Below are positions 13,550 to 22,313 of a stretch of 64,000 bases of DNA, one piece after another. The notes under the pieces are model-generated. The model saw only the letters and a program-made list of their open reading frames with translations, made no database searches and was not told the DNA's origin. The stretch spans positions 13,094 to 77,093 of the forward strand of contig CAVSMJ010000007.1 in assembly GCA_963729015.1 (NCBI GenBank), given 5' to 3'. This DNA is from an uncultured Actinomycetota bacterium. Lineage in GTDB: Bacteria > Actinomycetota > Actinomycetes > Propionibacteriales > Nocardioidaceae. The stretch's first letter is position 1. Each line of letters opens with the position of its first letter. A program made the translations under genes and the position numbers.

Positions 13550-14195
13550 TCAGAGCACCCCGTCCAGCGAGTGGTCGCCGATGCTGGCCTTGGCGGCGAG
13601 GTAGCGGCCGTTCGACGGTGACAGGTGCACGCCTCGTCGGCACCCGCTCGGCGACGGTGACGCCGAGTCCGGTCGAGCTGCGCGGCCTTGTCCGGGTTGT
13701 TGCTGAGCAGGGCGACCTGCGACTCCCCCAGCGCCCGCAGCATCTGCGCGGCGGCGCTGTAGTCGCGCGCGTCGGCCTCGCAGCCGAGGGCGAGGTTGGC
13801 CTCGTAGGTGTCGAGGCCGTCGTCCTGGAGCAGGTAGGCGTCGAGCTTGCGGTAGAGCCCGATGCCGCGGCCCTCCTGGCGCAGGTAGAGCAGGTAGCCG
13901 CCGGCCTCGGTGATCCGCTCGACCGACTCGCGCAGCTGCGGCCCGCAGTCGCAGCGCTGGCTGCCGAACACGTCGCCGGTCAGGCACTCGCTGTGCAGCC
14001 GGACCAGGGGCGGCCGGTCGTCCCGGCTGGCGCAGTGCGCTGACCCGGTCGCCGAGGCCGAGCGCGAGGTGCTCCTGGCCGTCGACGAGGCCGTCGAAGG
14101 TGAACACGCGGGCGCGGGTGGCGAAGCCGTCGGCGAACTCGAGCGGTACGACGAGCTGGGTGCGGATCGTCGCGACGGGCAGGGTCGCTGGTCAT
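13550..14195 (-). CDS. ribA: GTP cyclohydrolase II (RibA-like), frameshifted
   Basis: [58 protein letters not shown]. Confidence 0.9.
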
Positions 14196-14902
14196 GCGCT
14201 CTCCTCGGTCAGGTCCAGGCAGAAGCGGGACGACAGCGCGTAGCGGAGCAGCACGACGTCCCCGATCGGACGCACCTCCGCCAGCCGCGCCCGTCGGCCG
14301 GGGTTGAAGGGGAACCGTCCGTCGCCGACGAACCGGCTGGCCCGCGAGTCGCCGACGAAGAACGGCGCGACCACCAGCTGCAGCTCGTCGGCCAGGTCGG
14401 CGGTGAGGAACTGGGTGTGCACCGTGCCGCCGCCCTCGACCATCAGCCGGCGTACGCCGCGGCGGCGCAGGTCCTCGCTCATCCGGCGTACGTCGACCGG
14501 CTGGCCGCCGTCGACCACGGTGGCCACCTCGCCGAGCCGTCGCGGGCCGCGGGCGACGGCGTCGCTGGCGCAGTAGACGAGCTTCTCGCTGTCGCCGGTG
14601 GCGAAGAAGTCGGCGCACGGGTCGAGCTCGGCCCGGCGGGTGACGGTCACCTTGATCGGCGAACGACGCAGCCCGCGGGCCGCGCGTCGCTCGACCCGGG
14701 CCGGCTTGCGGACGAGCAGCCGCGGGTTGTCGTGGCGGATCGTCGCGGCGCCGACCATGATCGCGTCGCAGCCGGCGCGCACGTCGTCGACCCGGTCGAG
14801 GTCGGCCTCGTTGGAGAGGATCAGCCGGTCGCCGGTGCCGCGGTCGAGGTAGCCGTCGATCGAGATGCCGCAGCTCAGCAGGGTGTAGGGACGCTCACGC
14901 AT
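14192..14902 (-). CDS. RibD C-terminal-type pyrimidine reductase (no deaminase domain)
   Basis: [55 protein letters not shown]. Confidence 0.9.
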
Positions 14903-15820
14903 GGGCGGGCCTCCGCACGCCCATCAGCAGTACGACGGCGCCGGGCAGGCTGGCCACGAGCACCATCACGCCGTAGACCACGGCGGTCGCGACACCCTGC
15001 GCCGGCACCGAGCCCGGCCGCGCCGAAGACCCACGCGGCCACGCCCTCGCGCGGACCCCAGCCCGCCACGTTGGCGGGGATGCCCATCGCGACCAGCACG
15101 AGCAGCGCGAGCGGCACCAGCTCGAGGGTCGAGGTGGTGGAGCCGGCGGTGCGCGCCGCGACCAGGAACGTGATCACGTGGCCGACGACGGCGAGCGCCG
15201 AGGCGAGCAGGATCACCGGCCAGGCACGCCGCGCGAACACCCCGGTGCGGAGGTCGCTGACGACGGTGGCGAACCGCCCGCGACACCCGCGTCGCACCAC
15301 CGCGAGCGAGCAGCGCCCGGACCCGAGGGCCAGCACGAGCACGACCGCGACGACCGGCGTCGCCACGACCGGGACCGACGAGCGCACCGGTGAGGGCAGC
15401 GCGAGCAGCACCAGCACCGCGAGCACGACCTGGACGACCTGGCCGGTGACGCGGTCCCACACCACGGCCCGAGCACCGCGAGGCAGGTCGCCGGCGTCAC
15501 GGCCGTGGCGCACGGCGCGGTGGACGTCGCCCAGCACGCCGCCGGGCAGGGTGGAGTTGAGGAACTGCGAGCGGTAGTACGCCGCGACCGCCGTCGCGCA
15601 GCGGCAGGCCCACGCCCATCCCCCGCACCACCACGCTCCAGCGCCAGGCGCAGCACGCCGTCGTGCCCACCGCGATCAGCGGTGGCGACGAGCGAGCGCG
15701 CGGCCGTCGACCGTGCGCAGCCCGTCGAGGAACGGTCCGCTGCCCAGCCGCCAGACCAGCGACGAGCAGGATCGCCGCCCCTGCGACGAGGCGGACCCGG
15801 GCCCAGGTGCGCCGGCTCAT
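14895..15820 (-). CDS. Lysylphosphatidylglycerol-synthase TM (UPF0104) flippase-like membrane protein, frameshifted
   Basis: [46 protein letters not shown]; start and stop overlap neighbouring genes. Confidence 0.8.
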
Positions 15821-16858
15821 CGGGCCACCTCCTCGAGCACCCGCGCGACCCGTTCGGCGGTGTCCGGCCAGCCGGCCAGCGTCGTACGACGCTCGCGGGC
15901 GGCCGCACGCAGTCGTGCCGGAGCGCCTCGTCGAGCAGCCAGCGGCGCAGCGACCGAGGCCATCGCGGCGCGTCGTCGGGCGGCACCAGCAGGCCGGGCG
16001 TCCCCCGGCGGCGGTGGACCCGAGCGCCTCGGGCAGCCCGCCGACCTCGGTCGCCAGCACCGGGAGCCCGCGCGCGAGCGACTCGGTGACCACCATCCCC
16101 CAGCTCTCGCGCGCGGGTGGCCAGCACCAGCACGTCGGCCGCGGCGTAGGCCTTGTCGAGCGCGCGCGCCGGCAGTGCGCCGGTCCAGGTGACCCGGTCG
16201 GCGATGCCGAGCTCGGCCGCATGGCCGCTGCAGCCGCGTCGACGAGCGCCCGGTCGCGGTCGAGCGAGCCGACGCAGGTCAGGTGCCAGGGCAGGTCGGC
16301 GACCTCGGCGAGCGCCGCCAGCAGCACGTCGTGGCCCTTGTCGGGCGTGACCGCGGCGACGCAGAGCAGCTCGCCACCCGCTCGCTTCCCGTCGGCCAGG
16401 TCGGCCGGGTCGACGCCCGGGCGCGGCGACGTGACACCCGCTCGGCGCGCAGCGCGTAGTGGTCGACGCACCCAGCGCCGGCTCCACTCGCTCGTGGTCA
16501 CCACGGCGGTCGCGGCCGTCAGCACCCGGCCCTCGGCGACGCTGGCCTCGACGTCGCGCTCGCCGAACGGCATGTGCAGGAGTACGACGAGCCGCAGCCG
16601 GTCGGCCTCGGCGAGCACGGCCTGGGCCGAGCGACGGCGACCAGCCCGTCGACCAGCACGACCGCGTCGTCGGGCAGCGACGCCAGGACATCGGCCAGGA
16701 CACCGGCCGGGGTGTCGGTGACCGGGTGCTCCCCCACCGACCACCCCGACCGGGTCAGCTCCTGGACGAGCGCGGCGGTCGTAGACGTTGCCGCCGCTGG
16801 GCCTGGTCGGGTCGTCGATCCCCTCGGGCACGACGACGTGCACCTGCGCCGTCGTCAT
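15817..16858 (-). CDS. Glycosyltransferase family 4, frameshifted
   Basis: [54 protein letters not shown] (EX7E motif). Confidence 0.85.
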
Positions 16859-17255
16859 GGCGCCCGCTCGTAGCTCGCCCACGCGACGTGGGACTCGTGC
16901 AGGGTCACCGCGACGGCCGTGATCCCGCGCGCACCCTCGCCGAGCGCGCCGGCGTGGATCCGGTCGCAGAGCCGGTCGGCGACGACGCGGGCGAGCACCT
17001 CGGTCGTGGTGTTGGTGCCCTCGAGCAGCGGCTCGTCGTCGAGGTTGCGGTAGGTCAGCTCGCCGAGCACCGTCGCGCAGCTCGTCGGTGGCCCGGCCGA
17101 TGTCGACCACGATGCCGTCGTCGTCGAGGTCGGGGCGGCGGAAGGTCGCGTCGACGACGAAGGTCGCGCCGTGCAGTCGCTGCGCCGGTCCGAAGACCTC
17201 GCCCGGACAGGCTGTGCGCCACCATCATGTGGTCGCGGACGGTCACGCTGAACAC
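16855..17255 (-). CDS. 6-pyruvoyl-tetrahydropterin synthase/QueD-fold protein (COG0720, PTPS-IV-like)
   Basis: [59 protein letters not shown] replaces the CxxxHGH of QueD. Confidence 0.85.
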
Positions 17256-17256
17256 G

Positions 17257-21153: not shown

Positions 21154-21862
21154 GCACTGCGACTACGCCGAGTGGGACGGCTCCTACGTCCTCGGGGCCC
21201 TGTCGCCCGCCGAGCGCCAGGACTACGAGCAGCACCTGGCCACCTGCAAGGACTGCGCCCGCTCCGTGCGCGAGCTGGCCGGGCTGCCCGGGCTGCTCTC
21301 GCGCGTCGACCCGCGTCGTCCTGGAGCCCGCGCCGGCCGTGGAGCCGGTGCCCGAGACCTGCTGCCCTCGCTCGTGCGCGAGGTCAGCCGCAGCCGGCGT
21401 CGGCGCGTCTACGGCATGGCCGGTCTGGCCGCCGCGGCCGCGGTCGCCATCGGGCTGGTCGTCGTCCAGGGCGTCGCCGGGGACGACAACCCTCCGGCAG
21501 CGTCGCCTCCCGCGCCGCGAGCCCGAGCGCGACCGCCCCGGTCGGGCCAGGCGATGAGCCCGGTCGGCGACGCGCCGGTGACGGCGTCGGTCGCGTTCAC
21601 GCCGGTCACGTGGGGCACCAAGCTCGACCTGACCTGCAGCTACGAGCCCACGCCGGGCGAGTACCAGCTGCCGCGACGGGTGACCTACGGGCTGTTCGTG
21701 GTCAACCGCGACGGCAGCGCGGAGCAGGTCGGCACCTGGCAGCGCGCTCGACGGCCGGACCATGCGGCTGGCGGCGCGCGACGGCCGCCCGCCGAGCCGA
21801 CATCGCCTCAGTGGAGGTGCGCACCACCGACGGACGACCCGTCCTGCAAGCTGGTGGCGTGA
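21150..21862 (+). CDS. Zinc-finger (ZAS) transmembrane anti-sigma factor, RslA/RsuA-like, frameshifted
   Basis: YVLGALSPAER..YEQHLATCKDC (HxxxCxxC), ELAGLPGLL, TM helix, WGTKLDLTCSY, EQVGTW. Confidence 0.85.
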
Positions 21863-21864
21863 CC

Positions 21865-22236
21865 TCAGCGGGTTGTCCGCGAGGAGCAGCAGCGGCTCCG
21901 GAGCACGATCGCGGCCGCCTCGGAGATCGCGGCCGCCCACACGTAGCCGCCGACCCAGCGCTCGTGCACGTCGAAGAAGCCCGACGGCAGCGTCGAGATG
22001 ATGAAGGCGCCGAGCGTCGAGACGCCGAAGCCCAGGGTCAGGAACGCCGGGATCCAGTGCTTCCACGCCACCAGCAGCACGGCGATCACGACGCCGGCGA
22101 CGGCGTTGAGCAGGAAGGCCGGCCCGACGACGTCGAGGTCCTTCATCCCGTCGTTCCACAGGTGGTAGTGCACGTACGCCGAGACCAGGACGGCGATCGC
22201 CGCCAGCCACCGGGCATACCTCAGGTTGTCCGTCAT
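21865..22236 (-). CDS. Small 4-TM hypothetical membrane protein with His residues
   Basis: RBS ggagg; [44 protein letters not shown]. Confidence 0.75.
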
Positions 22237-22287
22237 GGTGTCCTCCGTAGTCCGCGAGGTCCTCGACGATCGAGGCCTCCTAGGAAA

Positions 22288-22313
22288 GACGGATTCGGAC
22301 GGCGTGCGGTTCA
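22288..22313 (-). promoter_or_regulatory. ECF17 (SigL/SigU-type) promoter for the 4-TM protein gene
   Basis: Minus strand TGAACC (22313-22308), 16 nt gcacgccgtccgaatc, CGTC (22291-22288). Confidence 0.75.

Follow-up and report, generated by a model that had tools for sequence, protein, structure and literature searches.

A putative SigL/SigU-controlled gene cluster joining GTP-processing and membrane-lipid genes in an uncultured member of the Nocardioidaceae

Gene content of the cluster

A gene cluster at positions 13550..22313 of a 64,000-nucleotide stretch of DNA from an uncultured member of the Nocardioidaceae is described here (assembly GCA_963729015.1, contig CAVSMJ010000007.1, forward-strand positions 13,094 to 77,093; called the window, with all coordinates counted from its first letter). 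The window is part of contig C7 of a 4.66 Mb genome, 68% complete, in 16 long contigs. Among named organisms the PTPS protein of the cluster is matched best by Marmoricola, in keeping with this family. On the reverse strand lie the genes of a medium-chain dehydrogenase/reductase (MDR) family dehydrogenase (17257..18249; tblastn and alignment; frameshifted), a T-fold protein of the SCO6650 type, group IV of the 6-pyruvoyltetrahydropterin synthase family (PTPS-IV; 16855..17255; 3D7J match, alignment and motifs; two frameshifts), a family 4 glycosyltransferase (GT4; 15817..16858; PF00534 and structural model; frameshifted), a UPF0104/lysylphosphatidylglycerol-synthase-TM flippase-like membrane protein (14895..15820; PF03706 and tblastn; frameshifted), a stand-alone RibD_C reductase of Rib7 type without a deaminase domain (14192..14902; PF01872; unbroken open reading frame), and RibA, a Tyr-type GTP cyclohydrolase II (13550..14195; tblastn, PF00925 and NF001591; three frameshifts). 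On the forward strand, a fusion of a CDP-alcohol phosphotransferase (CDP-AP), membrane helices and an LtaS/EptA-type domain (18340..20561; PF01066 and model; frameshifted) is followed by an extracytoplasmic function (ECF) sigma factor of SigL/SigU (ECF17) type (20638..21153, start approximate; SigL match and NF007227) and an RslA-like, zinc-binding (HxxxCxxC) membrane anti-sigma factor (21150..21862; 3HUG chain B and zf-HC2; frameshifted).

The proteins of an intact, syntenic copy (genome G034, locus L016; 85% nucleotide identity to the window) were mapped onto the window by tblastn, and the seven families named in an earlier note on this DNA were recovered in the order claimed. Pfam searches of intact copies returned PF00107 (weak, below cut-off), PF01242, PF00534, PF03706, PF01872, PF00925 and PF01066. 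The whole 7 kb is present at 83-85% identity in 4 of 61 related genomes searched at the DNA level. The overlapping or abutting starts and stops were read straight from the window sequence: ATGA overlaps join reductase and RibA, GT4 and UPF0104, PTPS and GT4, and ECF and anti-sigma factor; UPF0104 and the reductase overlap by 8 nt, and MDR and PTPS are separated by 1 nt. As the earlier note had it, none of ribB, ribE, ribH, folE and queC is among the genes called in the intact L016 copy.

The RibA and reductase genes are not the only riboflavin genes of the genome. A canonical ribD-ribE-ribBA-ribH-hisE-hisG run is located on contig C14; the deaminase, RibB, RibE and RibH, all absent from the locus, are encoded there, and two folE copies are found at C16:259672-260190 and C13:1429768-1430299. 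Housekeeping needs for riboflavin and folate are met outside the cluster.

Sequence quality

Aligned to G034, the cluster carries 46 net frameshifts over 8.5 kb (5.4 per kb), and 8 of its 10 genes are broken, the exceptions being the reductase and the ECF body. Open reading frame calling fails on the window because frames switch every few hundred bases, and the fusion was for the same reason taken from alignment and relatives, not from a single frame. The rib/his operon on C14 has 23 frameshifts in 6.0 kb (3.8 per kb; 8 of 9 genes broken), 14 other genes of the window have 16 in 8.7 kb (1.8 per kb), and in two control genomes, with 5 and 6 genes left after filtering, there are none. Public DNA runs share at most 0.15 of sequence words, and the four examined are mixtures of relatives; no RNA run is listed as containing the sequence.

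Decay of the cluster into a pseudo-operon in the host organism would fit the excess of frameshifts over the other window genes, but the riboflavin operon elsewhere is likewise broken, none of the ten cluster genes has an in-frame stop in the alignment to G034, mismatches by codon position 1/2/3 number 243/178/694, most shifts are single-base insertions, and every catalytic motif sought is still present in the window; we consider decay scarcely credible. Given the breakage of the riboflavin operon and the lack of nonsense codons, the cluster frameshifts are likely sequencing error, which does not fully explain their excess over the other window genes.

Enzymes of the reverse arm

RibA of the window keeps HSECLTG, QRCDC (zinc cysteines) and KLDAY (Tyr), as expected of a canonical GTP cyclohydrolase II, in which the active-site Tyr is needed for formate release; the intact copy scores 242.9 bits against NF001591 (cut-off 148) and 177.7 bits against TIGR00505, below the cut-off of 205.85. 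The solved structures nearest to the reductase are archaeal and of Rib7 type (5XV5/5XUX, E 1e-46; 6P8C; 2AZN), with RibD/RibG at E 2e-18. Asp34, Arg42, Thr54, Asp58 and Glu156 are invariant in 29 of 29 aligned rows; Ser occupies position 10, the RibG lysine position, in 27 of 29, the other two rows being gaps. The Asp33-equivalent is kept, RibG Lys151 is absent, and the catalytic Glu and phosphate-binding Arg are kept, as in stand-alone Rib7/ArfC-type enzymes; we take the Asp33-equivalent and Lys151 to be the residues that tell these from RibG reductases. Asp34 aligns with the position changed to Asn in the solved variant 5XV0, and its equivalent in Rib7-type reductases presumably selects the 2-amino substrate. 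Since the reductase is of the archaeal Rib7 type, in whose route reduction precedes deamination (PMC8256712), the 2-amino group would likely be kept. TIGR01508 is the best family, yet its 122.4 bits fall below the curated cut-off of 186.45, a shortfall that weakens the identification as archaeal Rib7 itself, not the prediction that the enzyme would work like one. A dihydrofolate reductase-like pterin reductase of the Rv2671 type ranked lower (E 4e-23 vs 1e-46 for Rib7). The reductases of non-actinobacterial loci belong to other subfamilies, none with the lysine and most with His-x-His replacing the Asp.

The assignment of the T-fold protein to PTPS-IV was upheld by a match to SCO6650 (3D7J) at E 7.9e-58 and by FGPAQ at window position 17194, the signature of PTPS-IV within COG0720, whose neighbourhood has been recognised (PMC5445326). 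In the alignment His14, His28, Glu85 and Glu120 are kept, and Ala replaces both the QueD Cys and the third His; the ring-binding Glu is thus retained and the PTPS Cys is not. QueD and PTPS-I, -II and -III, which have the motifs CxxxHGH, CxxxxxHGH or ExxHGH (PMC5041015), were ruled out by Ala at the Cys position, HGA in place of HGH, and a TIGR03367 score of 38.5 bits (cut-off 89). No further PTPS-family match was found in the host genome, the cluster protein being the sole one, and a protein-cluster look-up for a PTPS-IV homologue gave PTPS clusters only. Two or three tandem PTPS-IV domains occur in proteins P0138, P0159, P0180, P0194, P0222, P0229 and P0263 (278-855 aa); the C-terminal stretch of P0180 is methyltransferase-like by eye, with no Pfam match.

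The MDR protein has SRGTE and YGY where zinc ligands are expected, the positions carrying Ser and Tyr being, we assume, the usual catalytic zinc-ligand sites; Asp177, after the nucleotide-binding strand, is invariant in the alignment. Among solved structures it is closest to threonine and polyol dehydrogenases, and its best NCBIfam match is BchC (E 6e-11, below cut-off). The GT4 model (mean predicted local distance difference test score, pLDDT, 95.6) has a GT-B fold with sucrose-phosphate synthase as top match (Z 32.6); it appears to be a generic GT-B enzyme, for which the fold search gives no acceptor clue. The cyanobacterial pterin glucosyltransferase BGluT (5ZE7/5ZER) was matched at E 2e-11, vs 6e-37 for the top GT4, and stood at rank 24 in the fold search (Z 26.4, root-mean-square deviation (rmsd) 4.0, 310 residues aligned).

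The fusion protein and UPF0104

The earlier note had described a CDP-AP joined to an LtaS/sulfatase-fold domain; the fusion and the LtaS/EptA fold were borne out, and the domain is not a sulfatase. Alignment shows no in-frame stop over 2,205 nt of the fusion region in the window, and a single open frame spans the fusion in at least 17 of the 43 loci that hold both domains, a test that undercounts, the true fusion at L017 having been scored as separate. AlphaFold predicts for the intact copy (pLDDT 89.7) a CDP-AP domain of about 180 aa, then further membrane helices and an outer domain. The CDP-AP domain superposes on PgsA (Z 17.6, rmsd 2.8, 165 aligned), and its motif DxxDGxxAR...GxxxDxxxD is invariant in 29 of 29 rows, with its two parts at 18522 and 18576 in the window. 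No cytidylyltransferase is among the recurring neighbours of PTPS-IV loci, which fits, and does not prove, use of CDP-diacylglycerol by the CDP-AP.

The outer domain matches LtaP (Z 21.0, rmsd 4.4, 272 aligned) and, more generally, LtaP, LtaS, GacH, EptC and MCR-1 (Z 20-21, rmsd 3.4-4.8), with sulfatases at Z 17.8-18.8; identity to LtaS proper, the enzyme that polymerises glycerol phosphate taken from phosphatidylglycerol, is 12-14%; full-length EptA aligns over fusion residues 194-734, membrane helices included. The helix count and this EptA alignment suggest that the domain faces outward. Glu434 and Ser482 are conserved in 37 of 37 rows, and His595, Asp670 and His671 in 36; Ser482 aligns with the Thr nucleophile of LtaP. 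A formylglycine sulfatase, whose motif is C/S-x-P-x-R, was ruled out: the nucleophile stands in S-W-L-A-H in 36 of 37 rows, without that motif. UPF0104 was recognised by PF03706 at E 8e-31 in the intact copy and 8e-12 in the window piece.

Regulation

The sigma factor matches M. tuberculosis SigL at E 4.4e-49 (next-best other sigma, 5e-13) and NF007227 above its cut-off; the intact anti-sigma factor matches 3HUG chain B (RslA) at E 1e-14, and HLATCKDC is present at 21233 in the window. By SigL similarity, the HxxxCxxC partner and an upstream motif of its own, and with no group hidden Markov model used, the pair is assigned to ECF17 (SigL/SigU) with a zinc anti-sigma factor. Strict TGAACC-N16-CGT sites lie at 18282 (18282..18306, + strand, facing the lipid arm, and found in relatives too), 18353 (18329..18353, - strand, facing the MDR-PTPS-GT4 arm) and 22313 (22289..22313, - strand, facing a small membrane gene). 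A TGAACC-N15-CGT form at 20580..20603 (+ strand; 16-nt spacer in relatives) is likely the autoregulatory promoter of the sigma gene. The ECF control proposed earlier is thereby supported at the level of sequence, by a local sigma pair and matching motifs before both arms.

Three strict sites in 8.8 kb compare with 0.10 expected from 53 genome-wide (P 1.5e-4, post hoc); in G034, 4 of 52 strict genome sites fall in the cluster. The top 3 of 207 matches in a matrix scan of the genome are all local, with no clear further regulon members, the scan being partly circular as the matrix was trained on relatives of the same sites. That the best matches are all local suggests a nearly dedicated regulon. 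The motif conforms to both the SigU consensus (PMC3224704) and the ECF17 promoter TGAAC-N17-CGT (PMC9194655). One differential-expression table (PMC5733086, supplement 3) labels SCO6650 as SigU and lists it with sigU, SCO6647 and SCO6651-6653; SCO6648, 6649, 6654 and 6655 are absent from that table. By this table ECF control was already known for S. coelicolor; new in this lineage would be the physical linkage of the sigma gene and, as the scan suggests, the nearly private regulon.

Motif counts were taken over 90 loci. Where the sigma pair is adjacent, the core-arm site is present in 10 of 10 loci and the lipid-arm site in 9; Streptomyces-type loci, with no sigma gene nearby, have the core-arm site in 27 of 38 and the lipid-arm site in 26 (both in 26); in the reductase type without an adjacent sigma gene each site is present in 9 of 42. 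Upstream of internal genes, taken as controls, the motif is found in 1/52 (reductase), 0/38 (creatininase), 3/71 (RibA) and 18/89 (UPF0104); the promoter-like site upstream of UPF0104 (e.g., L116:8907) is absent from the window. Among 201 genomes of the host family, PTPS-IV occurs in 63 and the sigma factor in 79, including 28 of the 138 without PTPS-IV. In the 63, the sigma gene lies within 7 kb in 39, at 10-19 kb in 2 and on another contig in 10, and was not found in 12, among them G484, which is flagged as unpublished. An unlinked homologue of the sigma factor (51% identity) is present in three Streptomyces genomes checked. In two further Streptomyces loci (L084, L085) an orphan PTPS-IV without MDR or GT4 stands near an ECF gene, a different one in each.

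Distribution among genomes

Examined were 109 actinobacterial loci (79 of the best 80 from more than 591 matches, and 30 chosen loci); counts refer to neighbours within 9 kb in the 88 loci whose PTPS match was strong and whose flanks both reached 5 kb or more. Another 90 loci (80 metagenome, 10 plasmid) were also examined, and the 24 with 5 kb of sequence to either side (host GC 0.45-0.74) make up a wider set. The phylum tallies include seven genomes flagged as unpublished (G148, G457, G108, G180, G375, G061, G451), and no claim rests singly on one of them or on G484. The 88 actinobacterial loci contain MDR in 86, GT4 in 86, UPF0104 in 82, CDP-AP in 75, a methyltransferase in 72, RibA in 69, the reductase in 46, an LtaS-like gene in 40 and a creatininase-like gene in 37; the 24 wider loci contain MDR in 23, GT4 in 23, a methyltransferase in 20, the reductase in 20, CDP-AP in 14, an LtaS-like gene in 13 and RibA in 9, some membrane module in 19, and the SigL-type cluster sigma in none. 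The co-occurrence of membrane with GTP-processing genes, which the earlier note had put forward as a check, is seen at most loci (CDP-AP in 75/88 and 14/24), and it persists through rearranged gene orders and across phyla. The PTPS-IV cluster is found in 7 of 11 genomes of a streptomycete-type family (f7) and in rhizobia, methanotrophs and others.

Two actinobacterial types were distinguished. Reductase and creatininase never occur together in the 88 loci (46 vs 37, five with neither), and of 74 RibA genes 34 combine Tyr with the reductase, 38 combine Met, His or Leu with the creatininase, and 2 do neither. This pairing (72/74) was not accepted as a rule: the core-gene tree (FastTree, MDR+PTPS) needs only three changes and is compatible with one origin. 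Outside the Streptomyces-type clade a creatininase stands beside a Tyr-type RibA and the reductase at L179, L196 and L204; with the few changes on the tree, these mixed loci mark the pairing as the swap of one lineage. On the same tree the creatininase (Streptomyces) type branches from within the reductase type; the reference locus of Streptomyces would thus seem to be derived and reduced. SCO6655 is assumed to stop at the formylated product. Deformylases of the creatininase family that act at this point have been documented (PMC9478397). The methyltransferase of Streptomyces loci is absent from the window locus, and none was found by query in the 68% complete genome.

An unlinked close homologue of the reductase is present in 7 of 7 PTPS-IV-positive f7 genomes, deaminase-fused and beside a Tyr-type ribA in 6 of 6 examined, so supply of the reductase in trans would be possible in the Streptomyces type. 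At L133:5942-8549 (likewise L134-L137 and L142; 6/6) the Tyr-type ribA is divergent from a Rib7-like reductase fused before a cytidine-deaminase domain, the reverse of the RibD order, and in most cases a MarR gene separates ribA from the fusion; a fungal-order route to a flavin or F420 precursor is a possible role of this pair. At L138-L141 reductase and deaminase domains are adjacent genes, without ribA.

Several wider or divergent loci have other partners. An MdoH-like GT2 replaces CDP-AP and the LtaS-like gene at L127:6079-7881, L224:5098-7011, L184 and L219, and may point to a glucan acceptor. Proteobacterial loci (L128, L130, L131, L226, L132, L129) add cytochrome b561 (6/24) and an FkbM methyltransferase (10/24), and have a long RibA with an N-terminal extension, and a PfkB kinase or inositol monophosphatase where membrane genes are absent. 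The divergent PTPS-IV-like loci L039-L045 (f22) have the order reductase-MDR-PTPS-GT4-methyltransferase; folB and an acyltransferase-like gene run in the opposite direction.

Flanking genes

A small hydrophobic protein without a match in the Pfam search is encoded at 21865..22236 (- strand), behind its own promoter motif; its gene adjoins the sigma pair in L016, L018, L023, L024 and L116. To the left (11100-13120) lie a PTH2-like and a MarR gene (Pfam on the relative's copies) and a short oxidoreductase-like gene; to the right (22313-28750) are genes that we take to resemble amylosucrase, serine hydrolase and lactate-utilisation genes. Both flanks are syntenic in the closest relatives only.

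Discussion

The reading that we favour, with a rough probability of 0.42, is that a sugar-bearing head group derived from GTP is built, attached to a phospholipid and transferred to a surface acceptor, all under induction by the sigma factor. Freed from its zinc anti-sigma factor, the sigma factor would fire the four promoters at which the motifs lie. Tyr-type RibA would then, as its family and residues strongly suggest, form 2,5-diamino-6-ribosylamino-pyrimidinone 5'-phosphate, and the Rib7-type reductase would, on fairly strong grounds, give the ribityl form with the 2-amino group retained. More speculatively, the zinc-free, NAD-type MDR may oxidise a ribityl hydroxyl, and the T-fold protein, by steering closure of the ring or shortening of the side chain, may lead to a polyol phosphate of dihydropterin type. 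This step is a guess; its overall outcome has a precedent in the conversion of the RibA product to dihydroneopterin phosphate described for Chlamydia RibA and TrpF (PMC4161248). GT4, judged by its family, would add a sugar; the CDP-AP, judged by catalytic motifs and fold, would couple CDP-diacylglycerol to a free hydroxyl; UPF0104 would flip the resulting lipid; and the outer LtaS/EptA-type domain would move the phospho-head group via Ser482 to a surface glycan or protein, with release of diacylglycerol. A more specific version, which we hold to be doubtful, is a new class of membrane lipid in several phyla: phosphatidyl with a glycosylated pterin-type (2-amino-4-oxo) head, made by a redox relay of RibA, Rib7, MDR and T-fold protein instead of GTP cyclohydrolase I, with a private LtaS-type transfer and an envelope-stress sigma factor.

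Several observations weigh against the lipid-linked head group. No result ties the heterocycle to the lipid: core and lipid genes are connected only through gene context and shared promoters, and shared promoters mean co-regulation only. GT4 is no nearer the pterin glucosyltransferase than many other GT4s. In the Streptomyces type the reduction and the final transfer would not be local, the reductase being found in 0 of 37 loci and an LtaS-like gene in 1. Of the wider loci, 5 of 24 have no membrane module and only 7 have UPF0104; an MdoH-like GT2 occurs in 4, never together with CDP-AP. At L037-L045 (families f22 and f6) the core is present and CDP-AP, UPF0104 and the LtaS-like gene are all missing, and 31 of the 42 reductase-type loci without an adjacent sigma gene carry no promoter motif. 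The counts also overstate independence because the loci are kin, ranked by similarity.

A rival reading is that of two co-regulated outputs: a soluble glycoside of a pterin or pyrimidine (a protectant, pigment, redox or signal molecule) would come from the MDR-PTPS-IV-GT4(-methyltransferase) core, and the membrane genes would make and use a different head group, of ordinary type, under the same sigma factor. The core hardly varies, whereas the membrane genes beside it are exchanged or dropped; several lineages have loci with the core only (L037-L045, L129, L132, L220, L225); FolB adjoins the core in each of the f22 loci retrieved (7 of 7); and PTPS, reductase and GT4 presumably resemble the cyanobacterial pterin-glucoside gene set. 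Against this, core and membrane genes remain together in rearranged loci and in different phyla, and UPF0104 stands inside the translationally coupled arm, between GT4 and reductase; we rate two outputs as rather unlikely. The ring might instead be only a handle, the T-fold protein cleaving off the ribityl arm and the lipid head being an amino-polyol or short polyol from the ribose of GTP, without a heterocycle. T-fold relatives that cleave side chains are described (PMC5041015), and the solved relatives of the MDR noted above, the polyol phosphates used by the nearest CDP-AP families and the small phospho-groups moved by LtaS, GacH and EptA would all agree with this; a polyol from GTP would be costly, however, and PTPS-IV has neither of the residues, the Cys and the third His, with which QueD cleaves; we hold the handle to be quite unlikely.

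That the cluster boosts the synthesis of F420 or flavins, by a route of archaeal style (RibA, then Rib7, then PTPS-IV) and with the sugar and lipid genes as passengers, seems very unlikely to us. PTPS-IV has been ascribed to F420 synthesis on unpublished work (PMC5041015), the reductase is of archaeal type, CofG is listed in 24 of 28 PTPS-IV genomes, and the host genome has CofG and CofD-family matches. In the same sample of one phylum, however, CofG is present in 221 of 401 genomes and PTPS-IV in 28; families f8 and f25 have CofG in 9/9 and 24/24 genomes and PTPS-IV in 0/9 and 0/24; two 100% complete genomes (G389, G069) carry the cluster without a CofG match; and no F420 gene is among the recurring neighbours. 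PTPS-IV is thus neither present wherever F420 is made nor confined to its makers, and an F420 role fits its distribution poorly. In haloarchaea such a role may exist.

The crystal structure of PTPS-IV (3D7J) was solved, and its gene neighbourhood recognised, years ago, and no reaction assigned to it was found. If the lipid-linked head group is real, it would be a heterocycle-bearing lipid and a surface modification of a new kind. The derived, reduced state of the Streptomyces locus may explain why the product has been hard to solve. The version in this family is self-contained, with entry enzymes, core, synthase-transferase and its own sigma pair; loss of the anti-sigma factor in a cultured relative should therefore switch the cluster on, and the sigma factor would offer a handle for inducing it and finding its product.

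Relation to known systems

The first two steps predicted here are identical to the archaeal and fungal entry into riboflavin synthesis (GTP cyclohydrolase II, or III with ArfB; Rib7/ArfC; Rib2), but the cluster is without deaminase, RibB, RibH and RibE. With LtaS/LtaP, GacH, EptA/MCR-1 and BcsG the outer domain shares the fold (Z 19-21) and the metal and His residues, at 10-14% identity and with Ser, not Thr, as nucleophile; its position fused to or beside its own CDP-AP suggests a private lipid donor. Sigma factor, anti-sigma factor and promoter are like those of M. tuberculosis SigL-RslA and ECF17, with a nearly dedicated regulon suggested here. The combination of T-fold protein, reductase and GT4 follows a logic that we take to be shared with the cyanobacterial pterin glycosides (FolE, PTPS, reductase, GT4 BGluT); the present cluster differs in entry by GTP cyclohydrolase II, a T-fold protein without the PTPS Cys, a GT4 that is not BGluT-specific, and the attached membrane genes.

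The closest known system is the SCO6650-SCO6655 region of S. coelicolor, with SCO6650 as PTPS-IV; Streptomyces loci have the same MDR, GT4, UPF0104, divergent CDP-AP and RibA, and the promoter motif of the window cluster is that of the Streptomyces-type/SigU loci. The window cluster differs in its Tyr-type RibA and Rib7-type reductase, where the Streptomyces type has Met, His or Leu in RibA, a creatininase-like deformylase and no local reductase, and in its fused LtaS-like domain and adjacent sigma pair. The PTPS-IV neighbourhood is already known (PMC5445326; 3D7J), and the earlier note's view that its product is unsolved agrees with the literature searched, subscription journals lying outside the coverage, where none was found. 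The cluster described here is a fuller variant of this known, unsolved PTPS-IV/SCO6650 system.

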